Assembly: GCA_965249065.1 (NCBI GenBank)
Contig: CBDFLG010000001.1
Span: 1,094,646-1,158,645, forward strand
Source: Dehalococcoidia bacterium
GTDB taxonomy: Bacteria > Chloroflexota > Dehalococcoidia > Lucifugimonadales > UBA3495
Reading direction: 5' to 3'
DNA: 64,000 nt
The translations under genes and the position numbers were made by a program. The notes under the pieces are model-generated. The model was given only the letters and a program-made list of their open reading frames with translations, did no database searches and was not told where the DNA came from. Of the stretch, positions 788 through 17,504 are shown in pieces; within the stretch, counting starts at the first letter, position 1; every line of letters starts with the position of its first letter.

Positions 788-1588
788 CTAAAGTCCGATC
801 AGCTCCCGGGCGTTCTCGCCTAGCATGCGCTCCTTGGCTGCGTCGGGCAGGGGGAGGGACTCGATGAACTGGGCGTCTTGGGCCATGTCGGCCAGCGGGT
901 AGTCGGTGCCGAAGCAGACCTTGTCTGCCCCGTGCCGGCTGACGATGCCCGCCAGCGTCTCGCTGCCCAGTTCCTTCAGCGCCGGCGGCCAGGTGGTGTC
1001 GATCAGCACGTTGTCGCGCCCGATGAGTTCCCGCTCTGCCTCGTCCAGCATATAGAACCCGCCCAGGTGCAGGGCGATGAGCTTCAGCTTGGGGAACTGC
1101 CGCACGACGTTCATTATCCGCGCCGGGTCGGCCCAGATGGTATCGCCGGGCTTGGTGTGCGCCCAGCGCCCCGAGTGGATCTCGACAACCATGTCGTCGC
1201 CCATTTCCTCGTAGAACGGGAACATCCGCGGGTCGTCGGGGTAGTAGCCGTTGACCATCGGGTGCAGCTTGAAGCCCTTGATTCCCGCCTCCCGCATCCG
1301 CCGGACTTCGCCCGCCTTGTCCTCCAGGTCCGGGTGCATCGCTCCGAAGGGCACCAGCATGTCGTCCTGTATGCTGATGAGCCAGTCGTTGGCGCCCCGC
1401 AGATGATCCAGCCGCTCGACCACGCCCAGCACCACGGACTTGTCCACCCCCGACGCCTTCATGTGCGCCTTGATGCCGTCCACGGTGTTGATGCCCACCG
1501 CCGGGTAGCCGAAGGTGCCGGTCATGTTCTCCAGCACCGCCGGCGCGATGCGGTCGGGCCAGATGTGAGTGTGAACGTCAATGCGCAT
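788..1588 (-). CDS. amidohydrolase-family metal-dependent hydrolase (TIM barrel)
   Basis: Start trimmed to MRIDVHTHIWPD (the HxH metal motif at the N-terminus typical of amidohydrolase_2), preceded by GAGGAA. Later FKLHP, EIHSG and FGTDYP motifs. Confidence 0.8.
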   Translation of the reverse strand: MRIDVHTHIWPDRIAPAVLENMTGTFGYPAVGINTVDGIKAHMKASGVDKSVVLGVVERLDHLRGANDWLISIQDDMLVPFGAMHPDLEDKAGEVRRMREAGIKGFKLHPMVNGYYPDDPRMFPFYEEMGDDMVVEIHSGRWAHTKPGDTIWADPARIMNVVRQFPKLKLIALHLGGFYMLDEAERELIGRDNVLIDTTWPPALKELGSETLAGIVSRHGADKVCFGTDYPLADMAQDAQFIESLPLPDAAKERMLGENARELIGL

Positions 1589-1649
1589 CAGCAGTTCCTC
1601 GCTGCGGATTTCGAGTGCCGGTAATTCAGGGCAGGCAACTGGAAACGCG

Positions 1650-1907
1650 CTACAACCTCTTGCCGGCCAGCAGCCCAATCAGACCGCTGAGAGCCGAGAA
1701 GAACCCCTGCCACAGCCGTTCAATAGCCGCTCCGGTCATGGTTCCCGGCGATGCTGCCCCGTTATCCTGGCTTTGGTCAGCTAAAGTTGCATCTGTGATG
1801 ATTGACAGCGCAACAGCCGAGATCAAGGTTAGCAGCGCTATGAGCATAATAAAGGCAACGATTGAGAAGTACAGCTTGGACGCGCTGACGGATGGCTCAT
1901 CATTCAC
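1650..1907 (-). CDS. possible small membrane protein
   Basis: ORF with one strong TM segment (LYFSIVAFIMLIALLTLISAVALSII) in a locally AT-richer stretch. The start is uncertain (GTG at 1907 or an internal ATG), there is no clear SD and no family match. Confidence 0.3.
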   Translation of the reverse strand: MNDEPSVSASKLYFSIVAFIMLIALLTLISAVALSIITDATLADQSQDNGAASPGTMTGAAIERLWQGFFSALSGLIGLLAGKRL

Positions 1908-2137
1908 GCGCTGGCCACACGTCTCCCGTCTGGTAGTCAATCCACGCCGCTTGGCCCGGATGCCGCACCGCAAACCACATTATACGCAGGGACGCGATGA
2001 CCCAGGCAACGAAGGGGTGACGCACCCGTCCCCGGGGACGGTCAGGGGCAGTCTTTGGCGACTGTCCCTGAATTTCCTGAATTTCAGAAAGCAACATACG
2101 CAAATCTTTGCATTGCAAAACTGGTCTTATTATATCC

Positions 2138-2548
2138 CTACTTATACCCCCGCGCTGCGTCGGTTCCTGCCCGCACCGCTTCCGGCGCCGACTTATCCGG
2201 GGAGTCCGGGGCCGAGAGTGGCTCAGGAGCAGCGTCGCGCGGAGGTTCGTAGGGGCCGTAGCCCTTGAGCAGGGGGAAGGGGCGGTCAATGGGCGTAAGC
2301 CACAGGGCCGCGAATATGCGCCCGGCCTTGGCGATGGACGGGTTGGCGTCGCCGCTCTCCAGCCGGACAACGTATGCCTCGCTGACGCCCAGCAGGTCCG
2401 CCAACTGTTGCTGAGTCATGTTCCGCTCTTGTCGCGCGAAGGTTAAAGCGAGAGCGAATCCTATTTGGGCCGCGGCTTCCCCGTAACCCATCCTTTCTTC
2501 GTCATCCTCCAGCTCTTCTGCCAGTTGTGCTCTGAAATCTCGTAACAT
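2138..2548 (-). CDS. XRE-family HTH antitoxin (HigA-like)
   Basis: HTH core MTQQQLADLLGVSEAYVVRLESGDANPS. It starts 2 nt after the stop of the upstream toxin gene on the same strand. Confidence 0.75.
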   Translation of the reverse strand: MLRDFRAQLAEELEDDEERMGYGEAAAQIGFALALTFARQERNMTQQQLADLLGVSEAYVVRLESGDANPSIAKAGRIFAALWLTPIDRPFPLLKGYGPYEPPRDAAPEPLSAPDSPDKSAPEAVRAGTDAARGYK

Positions 2549-2550
2549 TG

Positions 2551-2904
2551 TTAACCGCCTCCGATTGTACGGTATTCGGCAACCAAACGCCTGGCTAGAG
2601 CTATTTCCCTCAAAGGCGTCCGTTGAGTCCTCTTGCGGAACCCGTTAAGCAATATGAACTGGGCTTGGCCTCGGTCGTAATAACAGAACACCCGATAATG
2701 GCGCGCCCGCAACTCGTAAATGTCATCTTCTATATTGTCCATCATCGCAGTGTTCAGTAGACCGAGGCCGATTCTTTCCAGCCGGTCTATGGCGTTATTT
2801 ATGGCTCGTATTCCCGACAAGTCACCGCTTCGGCGAACCGATACACGGAAATCGTTGATTGGACGAGATCCGTCGAAAGACTGAAAGTCGATGATTAAGT
2901 ACAT
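2551..2904 (-). CDS. RelE/ParE-superfamily toxin, Gp49/HigB-like
   Basis: YELRARHYRVFCYY...FILLNGFRKRTQRTPLREIALA is the characteristic Gp49-like/HigB C-terminal pattern. The toxin-first gene order is typical of HigBA. Confidence 0.7.
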   Translation of the reverse strand: MYLIIDFQSFDGSRPINDFRVSVRRSGDLSGIRAINNAIDRLERIGLGLLNTAMMDNIEDDIYELRARHYRVFCYYDRGQAQFILLNGFRKRTQRTPLREIALARRLVAEYRTIGGG

Positions 2905-2950
2905 GCAGGCACTCTAACGCCGGATGTATAACCCTCCCTGCGTTACCCGC

Positions 2951-3793
2951 CTATCCCAGCACTTCCTCGGCCAGCTTCTCCAGCGCGGGCAGACCCTCGC
3001 CGGGGGCGCTGCTGGCCAGGCGGACGGTGGCCATGGTGGCGCCGGCCTCTTCCATTCGCTGGATTTCGTCCCGGTCGGCGGCTCCCGAGATGCAGATCTC
3101 GATGCTCTTGGGGTCGCGCCCGGCCGACTCGGCCAGCTCGTCCAGCGTGGCGCGGGCGGCGCGGACGTCCTCCGGTGTGGCGCGGACCGGCATCCAGCCG
3201 TCGCCGTAGGCCACCACGCGGCGGAAGACGTTGCGGGCTGCGCCGCCCAGCAGCACCGGCGGATGCGGCTTCTGCGCCGGCTTGGGGAACACCTTGAGCG
3301 CCGGGAAGTCGTAGTACTGCCCGTGGTACTCGGCCTCGTCCTGCGTCCACAGGGCCTTCATCACCTCGATGGCCTCCCGGGTTTGCGTCCAGCGGTGGTC
3401 GAAGTCGCCGCCCATGATTTCCGTTTCCTCGCGCAGCCAGCCCGCGCCGATGCCGAAGATGAACCGTCCGCCGGAGTGGTGGTCGAGGGCGGCTATCTGC
3501 TTGGCCTGCACCAGTGGGCTATGTTCCGGCACCAGGCAGACGGCGGTTCCCAGCCGGATGCGGGTGGTGGTGGCCGAAGCCATCGCCAGCCCGATGAACG
3601 GGTCGCCCATGTCGGCCATAGAGGGCGGGATCGAGCCGTCGGGTGTGCCGCCGTAGCGCGAGGTGGTGTGTACCGGGATGACGGGATGCTCCGGCAGCCA
3701 GAAGGAATCGAAACCTACTTCTTCGGCCTTCTGCGCCAACTCCGCCACGTTCATCGAGTTGCTGTTCATTACCGTGCTAACGCCAATTTTCAT
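2951..3793 (-). CDS. LLM-class (luciferase-like) flavin/F420-dependent oxidoreductase
   Basis: MKIGVS...ELAQKAEEVGFDSFWLPEHP...FIFGIGAGW..., the luciferase-like TIM-barrel signature. The cofactor (FMN vs F420) cannot be decided by eye. Confidence 0.8.
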   Translation of the reverse strand: MKIGVSTVMNSNSMNVAELAQKAEEVGFDSFWLPEHPVIPVHTTSRYGGTPDGSIPPSMADMGDPFIGLAMASATTTRIRLGTAVCLVPEHSPLVQAKQIAALDHHSGGRFIFGIGAGWLREETEIMGGDFDHRWTQTREAIEVMKALWTQDEAEYHGQYYDFPALKVFPKPAQKPHPPVLLGGAARNVFRRVVAYGDGWMPVRATPEDVRAARATLDELAESAGRDPKSIEICISGAADRDEIQRMEEAGATMATVRLASSAPGEGLPALEKLAEEVLG

Positions 3794-11345: not shown

Positions 11346-12428
11346 ATGGCCGTGCTGGAGCAATTCAAGGTAGACCATGACGAAGCGGAATTTGTACAGG
11401 GTGAGGCTCTGAAGTCAACCGTAGCCACGATATTCCAGCGGATGGGCGTACCGGAAGACGACGCTGTCTTGGGGGCTGACGTGCTGGTGCTGGCCGACCT
11501 GCGGGGTGTCGACTCCCATGGCGTGTCCAATATGCTGCGCAGCTACGTGTCCGGTTACCAGGACGGCACCATCAATCCGCGTCCTGGCTGGCGCGTCATC
11601 CGCGAGACTCCCTCCACCGCCACGGTGGACTCCGACCGTGGTCTGGGAACAATCATCACACCCAAGGCCATGGGCCTAGCCATCGAAAAGGCGCGCAACG
11701 TGGGTGTTGGCATGGTCGCCATCGGCAACGCGCGGCACTTGGGCATGGCGTCGTACCACTCGATGCTGGCCCTGCCCCACGACATGATTGGCGTGTGCAT
11801 GACCAGTTGCCCGCCGTCGGTGCTGCCCACCTTCGGGGCCGAGCCGCGTTTGGGCACCAATCCCATCGCGGTGGCCGTGCCTGCCGGTGAGGAAGCGCCC
11901 TTCGTCTTCGACGCCGCTACCAGTTCGGTAGCGGTCAACAAGATACGCATCGCCCAGCGTCTCGGCGCCGACATACCGTCGGGCTGGCTGGCCGAGCAAG
12001 ATGGCACGCCCATAATGGAGGACCGTCCGGCCCCGGACAACTACTGGCTTTTGCCCGTGGGCGGCAGCCGCGAGGGCGGCTCCCACAAGGGCTACGGGCT
12101 GTCCTGCGTGGTGGACATCCTGGCCGGAGTGCTGACCGGATTCGGCTATGGCGCGGTGCCGGGGCGCCCCAACTTCGGGCATTACGTGGCCGCCTACAGC
12201 GTGGATGCCTTCACCGACGTAGCCCAGTTCAAGCAGGAAATGGACGAGTGGATCCGCATGATGAACGCCACCCGCCCCGCTCCCGGCCACGACCGTGTGC
12301 TGGTAGCCGGCCAACCCGAGGCCGAGATGGAAGCCGTCCGCCGCGCCGAGGGCATCCCCCTGCACCCAGAGGTAGCCCAGTCGATCCGGGACATTTGCGG
12401 CGAGCTGGGCGTGGCGTGCTCGTTTTAG
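11346..12428 (+). CDS. Ldh_2-family (malate/L-lactate/sulfolactate) dehydrogenase
   Basis: LADLRGVDSHGVSNMLRSYV...GTNPIAVAVPAG...GGSHKGYGLS, the type-2 malate/lactate dehydrogenase family that includes ComC. Confidence 0.8.
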   Translation: MAVLEQFKVDHDEAEFVQGEALKSTVATIFQRMGVPEDDAVLGADVLVLADLRGVDSHGVSNMLRSYVSGYQDGTINPRPGWRVIRETPSTATVDSDRGLGTIITPKAMGLAIEKARNVGVGMVAIGNARHLGMASYHSMLALPHDMIGVCMTSCPPSVLPTFGAEPRLGTNPIAVAVPAGEEAPFVFDAATSSVAVNKIRIAQRLGADIPSGWLAEQDGTPIMEDRPAPDNYWLLPVGGSREGGSHKGYGLSCVVDILAGVLTGFGYGAVPGRPNFGHYVAAYSVDAFTDVAQFKQEMDEWIRMMNATRPAPGHDRVLVAGQPEAEMEAVRRAEGIPLHPEVAQSIRDICGELGVACSF

Positions 12429-12455
12429 CCTTGTTTTAGCAAGGAGGTTGATGGA

Positions 12456-14006
12456 GTGTTAGATCAGCGCTTTCGAAATCTCTGGGAGCAATTGCAGGGC
12501 AAAAAGCCCCACCTGTCTCATTTCTTGACTGGGGTTTACCTATCAGGGATACGTGGCATTAACAACCTGCGGGTCGGATTCGACTATCCGGTCAGTGTGA
12601 TAGCAGGAGGCAATGCCAGCGGAAAATCGACGGTACTATTTGCTGCTGCCTGCGCGTACAAAGTTCCGGGCGCAGGCGTCAAGGATTATGTGCCATCAAC
12701 ATTATTTCCATATTACTGGCCTCGAGTCGGAAAACGTGAAGACGACCGTCGCGAAATCGTGATCGAATTTGATTACTTGACCCCACAGGGGACGATCTCT
12801 ATGCGGTGGCGCCGCGGCACGGGCTGGAATCGCAGCTTTCTGGGCCGCAAGGGAGCAAGTCAACCGGAACGGCCCTTATACCTCAGAACTTTGAGCAACC
12901 TCAGTAACCCCTCCGAGGTCCGGGGGGTTCTCAATATGTCGCACTCGAGATCCGCCCCGGATGAGACTCGGCTAACCGCATCGCAGATCGAATTTGCTCA
13001 TCAGATGCTCCCGTTCCGATATTCAGAGGTAGTCGATTTGTCCAGCGGAAGGAAGAATCTGCTGTTCGCGGGTCAGGAAAGTGGTGTTGCCTATTCAGAA
13101 TTTCACATGGCAGCCGGCGAACGAGCGATACTGCGACTATCGCGAGAGATCGCCCAGCTTAAAGGCGCGCTAGTCCTGATCGACGAAGTGGAAGCAGGGC
13201 TGCACCCCTGGGTACAACAACTGCTGATGCTTCAATTACAACAGCTTGCGCTGCGCAACGACTTACAGATTATCGTTACATCTCATAGCCCGGTTGTGCT
13301 CGACTCGGTACCACCCAATGGGCGCATATTCCTGGACCGGGACGGCGGCGGCAAAGTCACGGTTCGGCCAGCCTATCGCGACTTGGTGCAAGACGCCCTG
13401 TATGGCAGATCAGGCGATGCGCTGAACATTCTTTGCGAGGACGATGCAGCCGAGGGGATTCTCTACGGTGTCTTCGATGTTCTATACCCGCGGCTTGGCG
13501 TTAGAACCGACTCGGTCCGTATTGGGCGCGACACCGGCGCAAGCGAATTTCCGACTCACGCTGCGGCATTCAGAAAATTTGGCCAGATACAGAATTTTGT
13601 CTTTGTGCTCGATGGCGACCAGCGAGATTCCGGCATTTCCGATCGGATTCGATCAGGAGCCCAAATAGATGTGCCTATCCTGTTCGTGCCGGGCCGCAGC
13701 ATCCCGGAGGTTTGGGTATGGAAGGCGTTAATCCGTAACGAAGCGGATGCCGCAGAAGGCTTGGGGATCGATAAAGATGAACTCTCGGCCAGGATGATAA
13801 GGGCAAATGCCGTGTTCGATTCCGCTTCCGACCCGGACACCGAAATTGCGAAGACAAAACTCCGCAGCCTGGCAGACGAACTGCACAGGGAGCCTTCCGA
13901 CATCTGCCGGATTATCGCCCGTCTGGAGGCCACCCGGGACGACAGCGAAATCCAGCCCTTAGTTGAAGGGCTGGAAAGCACTCTACTGGATTGGCGTGGG
14001 AGATAA
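12456..14006 (+). CDS. ABC-type ATPase fused to Toprim/DUF4435-like domain (OLD-family / fused PARIS-like nuclease candidate)
   Basis: GTG start 9 nt after AAGGAGG. Walker A GGNASGKST (res 51-59), signature-like MAAGERA (218-224), Walker B LVLIDEVEAGLHP (239-251), TSHSP (275-279). C-terminal ILCEDDAAEG (325-334) and FVLDGDQRD (383-391) match the Toprim acidic pattern. Lower GC than the flanks. Confidence 0.7.
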   Translation: MLDQRFRNLWEQLQGKKPHLSHFLTGVYLSGIRGINNLRVGFDYPVSVIAGGNASGKSTVLFAAACAYKVPGAGVKDYVPSTLFPYYWPRVGKREDDRREIVIEFDYLTPQGTISMRWRRGTGWNRSFLGRKGASQPERPLYLRTLSNLSNPSEVRGVLNMSHSRSAPDETRLTASQIEFAHQMLPFRYSEVVDLSSGRKNLLFAGQESGVAYSEFHMAAGERAILRLSREIAQLKGALVLIDEVEAGLHPWVQQLLMLQLQQLALRNDLQIIVTSHSPVVLDSVPPNGRIFLDRDGGGKVTVRPAYRDLVQDALYGRSGDALNILCEDDAAEGILYGVFDVLYPRLGVRTDSVRIGRDTGASEFPTHAAAFRKFGQIQNFVFVLDGDQRDSGISDRIRSGAQIDVPILFVPGRSIPEVWVWKALIRNEADAAEGLGIDKDELSARMIRANAVFDSASDPDTEIAKTKLRSLADELHREPSDICRIIARLEATRDDSEIQPLVEGLESTLLDWRGR

Positions 14007-14028
14007 CGATCTGCCCGCACCTTCGTCT

Positions 14029-15432
14029 TCACGCATTGGGCGGGCGCATGGTGTGCCAGGGGGTGTGCTGTTCGTAGGCGTAGGCCACTTTCAGCACCGT
14101 TGACTCGTCGAAGGGTCGTCCTCCGATTTGCAGGCCGATGGGCAGCCCCTCGGAGTTGAAGCCGCAGTTGATGGAAATTGCGGGCGCTCCCGCCAGATTG
14201 AAGGGCCGGGTCATCACCGGGGGCTGGTTGCGGGCCATTTCCTTGGACGTTATGACCGGGTCAGCTCCCACGATAGGGGCGCAACTCTTGGATGTGGGCA
14301 GCATCAGCACGTCGTAGTCGGACAGCGCTCCCAGAACCTCGCGACGAGTCAGCTCTCGAAGTTTCTGCACCTTGTGGTATGCCTGGGCCGGCATGATGCT
14401 GCCCATGAGCAGCCCGACCTGGTTGGAGTGGCCGAATTCGTGGAGCCGCTCGCGTATCCAGTCACGATAGGTAAATGAAGCCTCAGTGTTAATCAGGGCC
14501 GCGGCCAAGGTGCCTCCGTGCACGGTGAGAGGCAGCGAGACGTCCTCCACCGTTGCTCCCAGTTCCTCCAGCACCGCTCCGGCGGCGACTATGCCGTCGC
14601 GAACTTCGGGGTCAACGATGTCGCTGTCGATCAGTTCCCGGATCGCCCCGACTCGCAGGCCGGACAGCCCGCCGCCCAAGGCGTCGCGATAGTCCGGGAC
14701 CGGCGCGTCCCAGGTGTATGGGTCTTTGGGGTCGCGTCCGGCGATGGCCCCCAGAGTAATAGCGGCGTCCTCCACGGTCCGGGAGATGGGACCGACCTGG
14801 TCCATTGACCACGAGCCGGCGGCCACCCCGTAGCGGCTGACTCGTCCCCAACTGGGCCGCAGGCCGACGATGCCGCACCAAGCCGCCGGACGCCGAATCG
14901 AGCCGCCGGTATCCTCGCCCAGCGATGTGGCGCACAGGAAGGCGGCAGTGGCCGACCCGGAACCGCCGCTGGAGCCGCCGGTGAAACGGTCGAGGTCCCA
15001 CGGGTTGCGGTTGTAGCCGTAGCGCTGGGACGCGCCCAGGGCGAACTCGGTCAGATTGGTCTTGCCCAGCAGGATGGCTCCGGCTTTCTTTAGGTTCGCC
15101 ACCGCCGTGGCGTCTTCATCGGGAAAGAAGTCGGCCATGAGCCGGGAGCCGACCGTGGTCCTGATTCCCTGGGTCCAGATTTGGTCTTTGACCGCCACAG
15201 GGATTCCGTGCATCGGGCCGAGGTACTCTCCCCTGGCTATGGCACGTTCAGCCTCTTCGGCGGCGGTCATGGCCTCGTTGCGGCAAACTGTCAGGTACGA
15301 ATTGAACTTGAAGTTCAGGCTGTCGATACGGTCGAGATAGGCGTAGGTTGCCTCGACCGGCGACACTTCCCGCCTTCGGATGAATTCGGACAACTCCGCC
15401 GTGGTCAGGAAAGGAATATCCTGCTTGTCCAT
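14029..15432 (-). CDS. amidase (amidase-signature family, GatA-like)
   Basis: GGSSGGSGSA signature and KDQIWTQGIRTTVGS. 467 aa. Confidence 0.85.
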   Translation of the reverse strand: MDKQDIPFLTTAELSEFIRRREVSPVEATYAYLDRIDSLNFKFNSYLTVCRNEAMTAAEEAERAIARGEYLGPMHGIPVAVKDQIWTQGIRTTVGSRLMADFFPDEDATAVANLKKAGAILLGKTNLTEFALGASQRYGYNRNPWDLDRFTGGSSGGSGSATAAFLCATSLGEDTGGSIRRPAAWCGIVGLRPSWGRVSRYGVAAGSWSMDQVGPISRTVEDAAITLGAIAGRDPKDPYTWDAPVPDYRDALGGGLSGLRVGAIRELIDSDIVDPEVRDGIVAAGAVLEELGATVEDVSLPLTVHGGTLAAALINTEASFTYRDWIRERLHEFGHSNQVGLLMGSIMPAQAYHKVQKLRELTRREVLGALSDYDVLMLPTSKSCAPIVGADPVITSKEMARNQPPVMTRPFNLAGAPAISINCGFNSEGLPIGLQIGGRPFDESTVLKVAYAYEQHTPWHTMRPPNA

Positions 15433-16641: not shown

Positions 16642-17127
16642 CTAACCGTTTCTGAGATTCAGCAGAACGTAGACCGCGAAGGCGCGCCGGTCTCGCTCCA
16701 AGGTATTCTCAAAGCGGACGATGCACTGTTCCGCGTTTTCGATGTCAAGGATGACGTCGGATTGCTCCAGAACAACTGCCGGGTCATAGTCTGCGTGTTC
16801 CCGTTTTGATTGCAGGTATATGAACTGGTCGGCAAACTCCTGGATTTCGAATGCAAATCGACGAATCATTCCTTGGTTGTCGCAACGCGCTCTGACAGTT
16901 CCATGTTGCAATGCTCGATATGCCTGCTGCCAAGCCGGCCCGCTACGGCCAGATCCCGGACCTCCGACCAGCATATCGGCGCAACAATTTGCCAAGCAAT
17001 GGAACAGTGCGTAGTAGGTGGTGCTGACTGCCCGGCGAAGGCTGGTTTGGCTTGGTGAATGCCCGTCGACATCTCCGGCCAGCTGCCTGGCCGTGTCGAT
17101 CAGACCGATGCGACTTACCACTCCCAT
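16642..17127 (-). CDS. HEPN-like all-alpha protein (tentative toxin)
   Basis: SLRRAVSTTYYALFHCLANCCAD...YLQSKREHADYD resembles HEPN helix-1 and the R..H..Y region. Overlaps its upstream partner by 13 nt. AT-richer islet. Confidence 0.5.
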   Translation of the reverse strand: MGVVSRIGLIDTARQLAGDVDGHSPSQTSLRRAVSTTYYALFHCLANCCADMLVGGPGSGRSGPAWQQAYRALQHGTVRARCDNQGMIRRFAFEIQEFADQFIYLQSKREHADYDPAVVLEQSDVILDIENAEQCIVRFENTLERDRRAFAVYVLLNLRNG

Positions 17128-17504
17128 CCTCTAGGTTCATGCCACTCACCGCTCTGCCACCTGGACTTCGTGACATAATCGATAAAGGGGTAGGCCTCTA
17201 TGCCCTCTTCGCTCATTTTGTCCCAGACGCGGCGAAACACCTTGTTTTTCCACATCAAGGGCGCCTTTTTCAGGTTGCCCTCGTAAACCACGGATACGGC
17301 GATATACTTCGGCTCGTTTGGCTCTACTTCCCGGAACGGTTGATAGTCAGTCTTCACCAGTATCGGGCCAATACTGAATTCATCGCCGCAATACTCGCTG
17401 AAATCTTTGCTGACTTCTTCAAGGATGATTTTTTCGACTTTGCGGACAAATTTCCTCGGCTTCATTTCACAACATCCGCTATTACTGATTCCATTATAAG
17501 CCAC
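17115..17504 (-). CDS. small protein of unknown family, translationally coupled to the HEPN-like gene
   Basis: 129-aa ORF (GTG at 17504; alternative ATG at 17465 giving MKPRKFVRK...). No GSx..DxD nucleotidyltransferase motif. Trp-rich C-terminus (SRWQSGEWHEPRGWEW). Confidence 0.45.
   Translation of the reverse strand: MAYNGISNSGCCEMKPRKFVRKVEKIILEEVSKDFSEYCGDEFSIGPILVKTDYQPFREVEPNEPKYIAVSVVYEGNLKKAPLMWKNKVFRRVWDKMSEEGIEAYPFIDYVTKSRWQSGEWHEPRGWEW

Follow-up and report, generated by a model that had tools for sequence, protein, structure and literature searches.

A probable single-protein anti-phage defence factor of the HEC-04/IbfA family between two metabolic genes of a Dehalococcoidia bacterium

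The gene at the locus and its family

A stretch of 64,000 nucleotides from a Dehalococcoidia bacterium (GenBank assembly GCA_965249065.1, contig CBDFLG010000001.1, positions 1,094,646 to 1,158,645), referred to below as the window, was analysed with respect to a 516-residue open reading frame (ORF) on its forward strand. The ORF (12456..14006) starts with GTG, ends with TAA and is preceded by the Shine–Dalgarno (SD) sequence AAGGAGG, 8 nt upstream of the GTG. It follows an Ldh_2 gene (Pfam E = 1e-105), which ends at 12428, after a gap of 27 nt, and is separated by 22 nt from a convergent amidase gene (Pfam Amidase, E = 1.5e-114), the stop codon of which ends at 14029. Its GC content is 0.55, compared with 0.64–0.65 in the flanks, and the GC content at third codon positions (GC3) is 0.59, compared with 0.79–0.81. 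The extent of the ORF, both gaps and its AT-richness had been given correctly in an earlier reading of the sequence (the original prediction). The ORF is not a chance reading frame, since more than 2000 database homologs were found, the best 120 of which are full length and 71–100% identical; an exact-sequence look-up of the protein gave no match. In our judgement the product is probably a one-protein defence factor against phages, from the HEC-04/IbfA family; this family forms a stand-alone branch within the OLD-like ATPase–Toprim nucleases.

A promoter and terminator search around the gene gave nothing above the level of shuffled sequence, and no terminator-like hairpin was found in the 22-nt downstream spacer. 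Because no promoter-like or terminator-like signal in the window exceeds chance, the gene, which has its own ribosome-binding site, is probably transcribed by read-through from the upstream Ldh_2 gene.

HEC-04 is a fusion of an ABC ATPase with a TOPRIM domain and was found embedded in Hma systems; it protects Escherichia coli against T4, T5 and other phages, the substitutions K62A (Walker A) and E319A/D375A/D377A (TOPRIM) each abolish defence, and its induced expression appeared toxic (bioRxiv 10.1101/2024.01.29.577857). IbfA, the product of a long-known phage-interference gene of the IncI1 plasmids R64 and pUA1135, has been identified as homologous to HEC-04; it makes infection by a P22-like phage abortive, early transcription being altered (PMC12111858). 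The R64 IbfA sequence used here is that of the 1557-bp 'AAA family ATPase' gene adjoining ProQ in NC_005014.

PADLOC was run as had been proposed. The best defence model was HEC-04 (E = 1e-37), with residues 16–434 of the window protein aligned to positions 19–413 of the 494 in the model, i.e. about 80% of both; the second best, the retron type I-B model ATPase-Toprim_I-B (E = 2.4e-22), covered residues 198–398. R64 IbfA scored 9e-42 on the same HEC-04 model, which is comparable to the value for the window protein. In a direct BLASTP comparison IbfA was 23% identical over residues 14–389 (E = 6e-12), the EDD and LDGD motifs being in register. The family profile was aligned to IbfA by hhalign with 99.9% probability (E = 7e-32, 444 columns, residues 15–485 versus 5–475), and the homology therefore covers most of the C-terminal tail. 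By every testable criterion based on sequence, the window protein falls within the HEC-04/IbfA family. The suggestion of an undescribed OLD subclass is thus superseded, the family having already been published as HEC-04 (bioRxiv 10.1101/2024.01.29.577857) and IbfA (PMC12111858). Nor is the protein unusually short, as had been supposed: R64 IbfA has 518 residues, the HEC-04 model 494 positions and the OLD structure 6p74 528 residues.

Other collections of models were less informative. Pfam recognised the ATPase only (AAA_21, E = 2.6e-14; AAA_15, E = 1.6e-12; SMC_N). The Pfam Toprim-type models (Toprim, OLD-type and DUF4435) gave no match in 48 full-length members and 33 C-terminal sequences, and a profile of the C-terminal part alone gave no significant match in Pfam or among PDB sequences, DnaG being marginal. 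The PADLOC Old model was absent from the best 25 PADLOC matches of the window protein. Because the curated OLD and Toprim sequence models fail to recognise the protein, it is filed here under HEC-04/IbfA and described as OLD-like. The likeness to PARIS, AbiL and DUF4435 nucleases proposed in the original prediction was not borne out: DUF4435 was among the unmatched models, and the PADLOC models AriA (E = 9e-17), AriAB (E = 1e-12) and AbiLi matched the ATPase part only, AriAB within residues 233–285. The GajA model match was likewise partial (residues 234–288) and the NCBIfam Eco8 effector model reached 11.6 bits against a cut-off of 250. Assignment as a PARIS, AbiL, Gabija or retron effector was rejected because the partner genes or defining domains of these systems are absent.

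Predicted structure and conserved residues

The positions of the features described in this section are collected in Table 1. The AlphaFold2 (AF2) model used was obtained from an alignment reaching down to 25% identity and has a mean predicted local distance difference test score (pLDDT) of 89.5 and a predicted TM-score (pTM) of 0.72, with no segment below a pLDDT of 50. It replaced an earlier model from sequences 72–79% identical, in which the ATPase head was poor (pLDDT 68). The ATPase inserts are rich in strands (residues 101–127 and 189–214).

By definition (Aravind et al., 1998, as given in PMC10568477), the Toprim fold has a parallel sheet of four strands, the first followed by a conserved Glu and the third by a DxD motif. 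In the AF2 model the corresponding region (pLDDT 85–97) consists of b1 (323–327), a helix (330–347), b2 (354–358), a helix (362–374), b3 (381–385), a helix (394–402) and b4 (408–410), with E328 following b1 and D386-G-D388 following b3, which is the canonical Toprim layout and not some other fold. The assignment of residues ~321–415 to the Toprim fold thus appears sound on the grounds of topology, motifs and Foldseek E-values. Together with the motifs, the model supports the stand-alone ABC-ATPase plus Toprim architecture of OLD type that had been proposed, and all six motifs on which that proposal was based are in place, namely the four ATPase motifs and the acidic motifs ILCEDDAAEG (residues 325–334, containing E328) and FVLDGDQRD (residues 383–391, containing D386 and D388).

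In a Foldseek search of the PDB, the class 1 OLD protein of Thermus scotoductus (6p74) was the top match for both AF2 models (E = 1.5e-13 and 9e-13, probability 1.00). It was also the sole full-length match and was followed by the retron Eco8 effector, GajA, PtuA and retron ATPases. The same entry was found weakly in a PDB sequence search (E = 0.014, ATPase part only), in which AriA chains appeared too. Over the whole chain the window protein and 6p74 are 15% identical, with a TM-score of 0.34 and a root-mean-square deviation of ~15 Å.

These matches raise the question of whether the protein is a strict class 1 OLD, that is, an orthologue-level relative of P2 Old and the T. scotoductus enzyme (TsOLD) and a nonspecific 5'-3' exonuclease or nickase with an ATPase that merely modulates it. 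A single gene encoding an ABC ATPase followed by Toprim is indeed the class 1 genetic context as reviewed (PMC10568477), and the structural ranking and the weak sequence match point the same way. We nevertheless consider such a close relationship unlikely. The Old model lies outside the best 25 PADLOC matches whereas HEC-04 gives 1e-37, the OLD-type Toprim model of Pfam matches no family member, and both the identity and the TM-score to 6p74 are low. In addition, the inserts of the window protein are modelled as strand-rich whereas TsOLD carries a dimerization domain in its ATPase (PMC10568477), an apparent contrast, and the ATPase components of these systems have been described as structurally distinct (Payne et al., bioRxiv 10.1101/2024.01.29.577857). 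The distinction is partly a matter of naming, and a divergent class-1-like OLD lineage would be a reasonable description of HEC-04/IbfA.

Four of the marginal PDB matches of the C-terminal profile were to DnaG primases (5vaz, E = 0.011; 4e2k; 5guj; 1dd9). They fall on the DGD motif and on the LFLP..(D/E)P motif that follows it, with DnaG LFLPEGEDPD aligned to PGRSIPE of the window protein; the latter region was also aligned to LPNGVKPEQY of IbfA. On the basis of the weak DnaG alignment on LFLP..(D/E)P, the P412/P417/E418 motif is probably the third acidic Toprim motif and a putative metal ligand.

The residues expected to be catalytic are conserved, as the original prediction had asked to be examined. 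In 81 close homologs K57, D243/E244, H277, E328/D329 and D386-G-D388 are invariant. In an alignment of 48 sequences reaching down to 25% identity G51, G56, K57, G221, E222, H250, E328, D386 and P412 are invariant, and D243, E244, H277, D329, D388, P417 and E418 are at least 90% conserved. K57, E328, D386 and D388 correspond, with equivalent spacing, to K62, E319, D375 and D377 of HEC-04.

At E ≤ 1e-30 an exhaustive search of representative sequences gave 155 clusters, formed at 50% identity. Relatives of full length have 512–535 residues, range in identity from 68% to ~31% and are matched as far as residue ~515; the C-terminal tail is therefore part of the family architecture. It had been described as matching nothing recognizable, and is found to be a six-helix region common to the whole family (417–427, 429–436, 440–454, 461–475, 480–492 and 500–515; pLDDT ~90–97) that can be aligned with IbfA as far as residue 485. 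Its mean conservation is the lowest in the protein (0.62, compared with 0.73–0.89 elsewhere). The ATPase insert of residues 71–215 is strongly conserved (0.82), and 150 of the 516 residues are at least 97% conserved.

Table 1. Features of the gene and its junctions (window positions).
Feature	Position	Strand	Basis
Complete HEC-04/IbfA-family ABC-ATPase–Toprim gene, 516 residues	12456..14006	+	ORF list, PADLOC, hhalign, AF2
Upstream junction spacer, 27 nt, containing SD AAGGAGG (12441-12447)	12429..12455	+	Direct sequence reading
ABC-type ATPase head, residues ~23-300, with inserts ~66-140 and ~146-215	12522..13355	+	Pfam, AF2, Foldseek
Walker A/P-loop GGNASGKST, residues 51-59, K57	12606..12632	+	Motif, alignment
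ABC signature-like motif MAAGERA, residues 218-224; aligned to IbfA MSAGEQK	13107..13127	+	
Walker B and D-loop LVLIDEVEAGLHP, residues 239-251, D243/E244	13170..13208	+	Aligned to PtuA Walker B in solved structures
H-loop TSHSP, residues 275-279, H277	13278..13292	+	Motif, alignment
Predicted Toprim domain, residues ~321-415, E328/D329 after b1, D386-G-D388 after b3	13416..13700	+	AF2, conservation, PADLOC, Foldseek
PGRSIPE, residues 412-418, core of family LFLPG..PE.W motif	13689..13709	+	Conservation, profile alignments
C-terminal six-helix region, residues 416-516, family-specific	13701..14003	+	AF2, alignments
Downstream junction spacer, 22 nt, before stop codon of convergent amidase	14007..14028	+	Direct sequence reading

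Neighbourhoods, site occupancy and spread

Representative genomes of 185,579 species were scanned with peptide patterns derived from the query, giving 110 relatives (a lower bound), of which 80 were kept. These are 57–76% identical to the window protein and carry the taxon labels Poribacteria, Entotheonella, Binatia, Latescibacterota, Dehalococcoidia, SAR202, Caldilineaceae, Tepidiformaceae, Bryobacterales, Vicinamibacterales, Thermoanaerobaculia, Longimicrobiales, Acidimicrobiales and Alpha- and Gammaproteobacteria. For the neighbourhood analysis the ORFs of the 80 loci and the window region (81 loci in total) were clustered. Individual loci are referred to by L numbers where necessary.

No partner gene is conserved across the 81 loci, in agreement with the earlier view that there is no helicase or second gene; no neighbour cluster occurs in more than 23 of them, the commonest being subunits of type I restriction–modification (R-M) systems. 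Such a subunit lies within 10 kb of the gene in ~26 of the 81 loci, and in ~20 the gene is inside a type I R-M operon, mostly in Poribacteria, with one Entotheonella and one Binatia metagenome-assembled genome (MAG). The order is HsdM, HsdS, (DUF6978), (DUF1828/PDC-M24B-like), the gene, (DUF4062/HATPase_c_4/Fic-like_C), HsdR and YgjP-like peptidase. Among the 98 immediate neighbours at the remaining loci there are ~10 defence proteins (an approximate figure, from totals per family and not per locus): DrmA, DrmMI, type IIG enzymes, HmaB, HmaC, PDC-S01, PDC-M07A and a pAgo-associated domain. The gene is therefore embedded in or adjacent to multi-gene defence systems in ~26 loci and at those with Hma, DISARM and type IIG neighbours; the window copy is not one of them. 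Tabulated in this way, as had been suggested, the neighbourhoods of the homologs are variable or defence-related and are not housekeeping operons. That the Poribacteria copies favour type I R-M operons goes beyond the literature found.

The hsdS–hsdR gap of Poribacteria (L024, L034, L035, L040, L043, L045, L048, L053, L058, L073 and others) contains shuffled extra genes, namely those for a DUF1828 protein matching PADLOC PDC-M24B, a DUF6978 protein and a 501-residue DUF4062 + HATPase_c_4 + Fic-like_C protein matching pAgo-associated domains. In these operons hsdR is always followed by the YgjP-like metallopeptidase gene.

The frequent position between hsdS and hsdR would suit a guard of R-M systems, and bears on a PARIS-like reading in which the Toprim domain is an RNA- or tRNA-cleaving effector, like AriB, restrained by the ATPase until an anti-restriction protein of a phage is sensed. 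Anti-defence proteins such as Ocr act as the trigger of several defence systems with an ABC ATPase (bioRxiv 10.1101/2024.01.29.577857), and the matches of AriA and AriAB to the ATPase part and the AriA chains in the PDB sequence search fit as well. However, AriB-type DUF4435 was detected in no member, the AriAB match is confined to a short segment, the OLD, GajA and Eco8 nucleases are better matched in structure than AriA, and the window copy and many others do not adjoin any R-M system. We therefore regard this reading as improbable. It concerns only target and trigger, and is compatible with membership of the HEC-04/IbfA family.

In the Dehalococcoidia, the order M42 peptidase, Ldh_2, the gene, amidase and luciferase-like oxidoreductase is common to the window, L062, L083 and L085, with a variant arrangement lacking the amidase in L075 and L082. 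The flanking proteins of the window are 86–96% identical to those of L062, a Dehalococcoidia MAG. Empty sites were found in L087, where Ldh_2 (89% identical to that of the window) and amidase genes converge with their stop codons 20 nt apart, and in L088 and L089, where the distance is 13 nt and Ldh_2 is 82% identical. Occupied L085 and empty L089 are from the same metagenome sample; distant SAR202-type relatives, some of Tara Oceans source, also lack the gene. Because sister genomes have an empty site, the gene is accessory, and it lies in the spacer between two convergent core genes. A case as clean as this, in which the gene between two core genes is present, absent or replaced, was not encountered in the literature found.

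Occupied and empty lineages are interleaved by flank similarity, and the site has been occupied since before the divergence of several related lineages. The description of the gene as inserted between its neighbours thus holds in so far as empty sites exist, but not in the sense of a recent event. The upstream spacer of the window could not be aligned with those of L062, L083 and L085, each occupied allele having its own spacers, and no target-site duplication was seen at the junctions of the occupied alleles.

Several side observations concern these and other copies. In L083 (7944-8060) the gene has an apparent N-terminal frameshift, the called product of 497 residues starting at an internal TTG; this may be a real defect or an assembly error. 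In L076 (from 10001 onward) the reading frame extends to 1077 residues, which suggests a lost stop codon or a fusion. L088 carries, upstream of the M42 peptidase gene, a 644-residue GmrSD_N (type IV restriction-like) gene (1510-3444, minus strand) that is missing in L089, and L088 and L089 encode an identical Ldh_2 protein; this second defence-gene indel lies within ~2 kb of the same site, and the surroundings thus have the character of a small defence hotspot. In the SAR202-type MAGs L090–L094 (6085-6711) the slot after Ldh_2 is used by a different gene, a same-strand ORF of 208 residues with no Pfam family on record and no NCBIfam match, and the amidase gene is elsewhere.

The DNA of the window and L062 is ~85–90% identical up to both flanking stop codons and 52–76% identical inside the gene. 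The raw proportion of synonymous differences (pS) is 0.86 (saturated) for the gene and 0.32–0.53 for the flanks. As pS is biased by the low GC3 of the gene (0.59 versus ~0.8), a composition-corrected distance at fourfold-degenerate sites was used. For the window and L062 this distance is 0.44–0.80 in the flanks and at saturation in the gene, and for L062 and L083 it is 2.2 in the gene and 0.60–0.92 in the flanks; for the remaining pairs the gene exceeds the flanks by a factor of only 1.1–1.8. Ancient alleles in every pair were considered and found to be unjustified, as the corrected distance is clear only in the comparisons with L062. At least one allele replacement at the site, in the L062 lineage or its sister, can be safely concluded from these distances; another possibility is that the flanks underwent recombination and old alleles were retained. 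The gene is under purifying selection, as indicated by a proportion of nonsynonymous differences (pN) of 0.09–0.17. Within the Dehalococcoidia, gain and loss of the gene and exchange of its alleles can be accounted for by homologous recombination in the conserved flanks.

The six alleles at the site (the window, L062, L075, L082, L083 and L085) have a GC3 of 0.56–0.64, compared with 0.74–0.90 for the flanking genes. This contrasts with the tracking of host GC seen across the family (see below), despite the apparently long occupancy of the site; repeated re-import from a lower-GC pool and selection for low expression of a toxic gene are possibilities.

Homologs 57–85% identical occur in at least 12 phyla. 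For 77 proteins the median pairwise identity is 68% (77% within and 68% between taxon labels), and nearest neighbours across phyla reach 80–85%, e.g. 85% between Entotheonella and Bryobacterales. The GC content of the gene follows that of the host (r = 0.86, slope 0.70), so that the transfers are mostly not recent. The copies of L017 (labelled Acidobacteria) and L020 (labelled Gammaproteobacteria) are 98% identical, so that either the gene has passed between phyla very recently or the binning is wrong; L020 is on a 2.2-kb contig and its binning is doubtful. For copies embedded in R-M operons the cross-phylum identity of HsdM, HsdR and YgjP (54–69%) is similar to that of the gene (64–72%), which fits transfer of the whole module.

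Among plasmids (PLSDB) no relative exceeds 28% identity, and a plasmid-borne state like that of IbfA was accordingly rejected. No viral relative was found in IMG/VR, BFVD contained only generic ABC ATPases and one partial match was to Burkholderia phage phiE094. The window protein matches PHROG 3940; a phage vector or an origin from a P2-Old-like prophage is, despite this match, unsupported by the viral searches.

A lone ORF in many unrelated contexts and at least 12 phyla, accompanied by neither integrase nor transposase nor repeats and placed exactly in a 13–20-nt spacer between convergent genes, could also be a selfish or addictive element: a toxic nuclease gene that persists since its loss is harmful, or one that promotes its own insertion, with defence incidental. 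The toxicity of induced HEC-04 (bioRxiv 10.1101/2024.01.29.577857) would fit. Nevertheless, no conserved attachment, homing or attC-like sequence flanks the ORF (information at most 0.2 bits outside the SD, whose positions alone are conserved in the flanks of 76 loci), the junctions show no target-site duplication, and there is no bias in neighbour orientation and no pattern in gap sizes. The similar cross-phylum identity of the whole R-M module makes transfer as passenger DNA sufficient, and recombination between homologous flanks can account for events within the Dehalococcoidia. Of the alternatives weighed here we give this one the least credence. Only marginally better placed is its more specific form, in which the gene would be self-propagating and homing-like, breaks by the Toprim nuclease driving insertion or allele conversion and defence being secondary; the bare ORF without mobility genes, the short spacers, the unrelated contexts and the allele replacement are what speak for it. 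In a less radical version, a defence gene would be shared across one habitat, probably the sponge holobiont, and from the unusual conservation of the sensor inserts one would then expect a single conserved trigger in a virus pool that many phyla share.

Sponge and coral holobionts are suggested by the taxa and MAG names, and most hosts, that of the window included, apparently belong there, the habitat being read from these names for all but two Poribacteria bins. The SB, COS and IRC MAG names we take to match the sponge MAG study of Robbins et al., going by the names. The two bins, PCPOR2a (L040) and SB0677_bin_25 (L032), are among the sponge-symbiotic 'Entoporibacteria' (PMC7883664). In sponge symbionts an enrichment of R-M and CRISPR genes has been reported, together with lateral transfer of these genes between the symbiont phyla (Robbins et al., PMC8163846).

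Elsewhere in the window, two overlapping small ORFs of 161 residues (16642-17127) and 129 residues (17115-17504) on the minus strand form a low-GC patch (0.51–0.55) at 16642-17504 between a luciferase-like oxidoreductase and a hydrolase gene. They had no Pfam, PADLOC or NCBIfam match and no BLASTP match in L062 or other related loci, and related genomes carry different small ORFs in the corresponding region. This may be a second variable spot, e.g. a toxin–antitoxin pair.

Proposed mechanism and relation to known systems

By analogy with HEC-04, IbfA, P2 Old and TsOLD we infer that the ABC ATPase head would act as sensor and switch, its inserts recognizing an infection cue. ATP binding, or dimerization or engagement of the heads, would then license the Toprim domain, which would cut nucleic acid using bound metal ions. 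Phage replication would thereby be halted, and the cell would probably pay for this through abortive infection or toxicity. DNA is the most likely target, since the nearest structures are OLD nucleases.

Several observations weigh against assignment as an anti-phage factor of the HEC-04/IbfA family. The experimentally tested relatives, HEC-04 and IbfA, are only ~23–25% identical to the window subfamily, no curated Pfam Toprim model recognizes the C-terminal domain, and the whole-chain TM-scores of the model to OLD structures are low (0.34–0.39), as expected for a multi-domain protein at 15% identity. The window copy and six syntenic relatives are flanked directly by metabolic genes, with no adjacent defence gene. 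Finally, the conservation is unusually high for a defence gene (median 68% across phyla, 0.82 in the putative sensor insert), and this, like the agreement of gene GC with host GC, would be compatible with a domesticated cellular role too.

Such a role, as an ATPase–nuclease of DNA maintenance or repair (RecF/SbcC/RecR-like) or as a domesticated gene with a host benefit unrelated to phages, would also fit the stable syntenic position in at least six Dehalococcoidia genomes and the weak RecF, SMC_N and Rad50 matches to the P-loop region, and non-defence roles have been raised for chromosomal homologs by the authors of the IbfA study (PMC12111858). It is made very unlikely by the empty sites in sister genomes, with occupied and empty versions in one sample, by the replacement of an allele at the same site, and by the rarity of the gene in the representative genomes (110 relatives, as a lower bound from query-derived patterns). 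About a third of the loci are in or beside R-M or other defence systems, and the RecF and SMC matches are far below curated cut-offs. A defence factor of the HEC-04/IbfA family therefore remains the interpretation that we favour.

On this interpretation the family, so far tested only in enterobacteria, would extend to uncultured Chloroflexota, Poribacteria, Acidobacteriota and other phyla, and its embedding in defence operons is seen there as well, the host system being type I R-M. The locus itself is a very clean natural minimal defence hotspot, in which one gene is present, absent or exchanged with breakpoints at the stop codons. The conservation across phyla (57–85%), which includes the presumed sensing inserts, is unusually high and goes beyond what was found in the literature; the trigger, if identified, might be common to many phages of one habitat. 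A review of OLD proteins in 2023 left open whether a stand-alone OLD-like protein alone gives broad defence (PMC10568477), and this large uniform family offers candidates.

Among the known systems, HEC-04 (PADLOC PDLC04149) is alike in being a single polypeptide of ~500 residues with an ABC ATPase followed by TOPRIM, and in that close homologs of the window gene are embedded in multi-gene defence operons, one neighbour pair being HmaB/HmaC. It differs in that the model match ends at residue 434, leaving the last ~80 residues of the window protein outside. The window copy, moreover, lies between two metabolic genes instead of in a defence system, and its subfamily is embedded mostly in type I R-M and not Hma systems, with hosts in uncultured Chloroflexota, Poribacteria, Acidobacteriota and others in place of enterobacteria. 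IbfA of R64 and pUA1135 is likewise encoded by a single gene, is nearly equal in length (518 versus 516 residues) and is collinear over the ATPase, the Toprim domain and most of the tail, sharing the EDD, LDGD and LP..PE motifs; its identity to the window protein is, however, only 21–23%, and it is plasmid-borne, whereas the window family has no PLSDB relative closer than 28% identity.

Class 1 OLD proteins (P2 Old and 6p74) share the N-terminal ABC ATPase and C-terminal Toprim in one polypeptide encoded by a stand-alone gene (as defined in PMC10568477), are of similar length and provide the best structural match, but the ATPase inserts of the window protein look different by informal comparison. 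The retron type I-B/Eco8 effector (class 3 OLD) and GajA (class 2 OLD) rank high in Foldseek, and the retron type I-B model can be aligned across the C-lobe of the ATPase and the Toprim domain (residues 198–398). Both are larger proteins (~560–750 residues) from multi-component systems; no reverse transcriptase recurs among the neighbour clusters of the 81 loci, in which no search for noncoding RNA was run, and no GajB-type helicase lies next to the window gene or recurs as a helicase neighbour in these loci. PARIS (AriA/AriB) and AbiL (AbiLi/AbiLii) also combine an ABC ATPase with a Toprim-type domain, but they are two-gene systems, or an AriAB fusion of ~700 residues, with a Toprim of the DUF4435 type, which was not detected in the window family.

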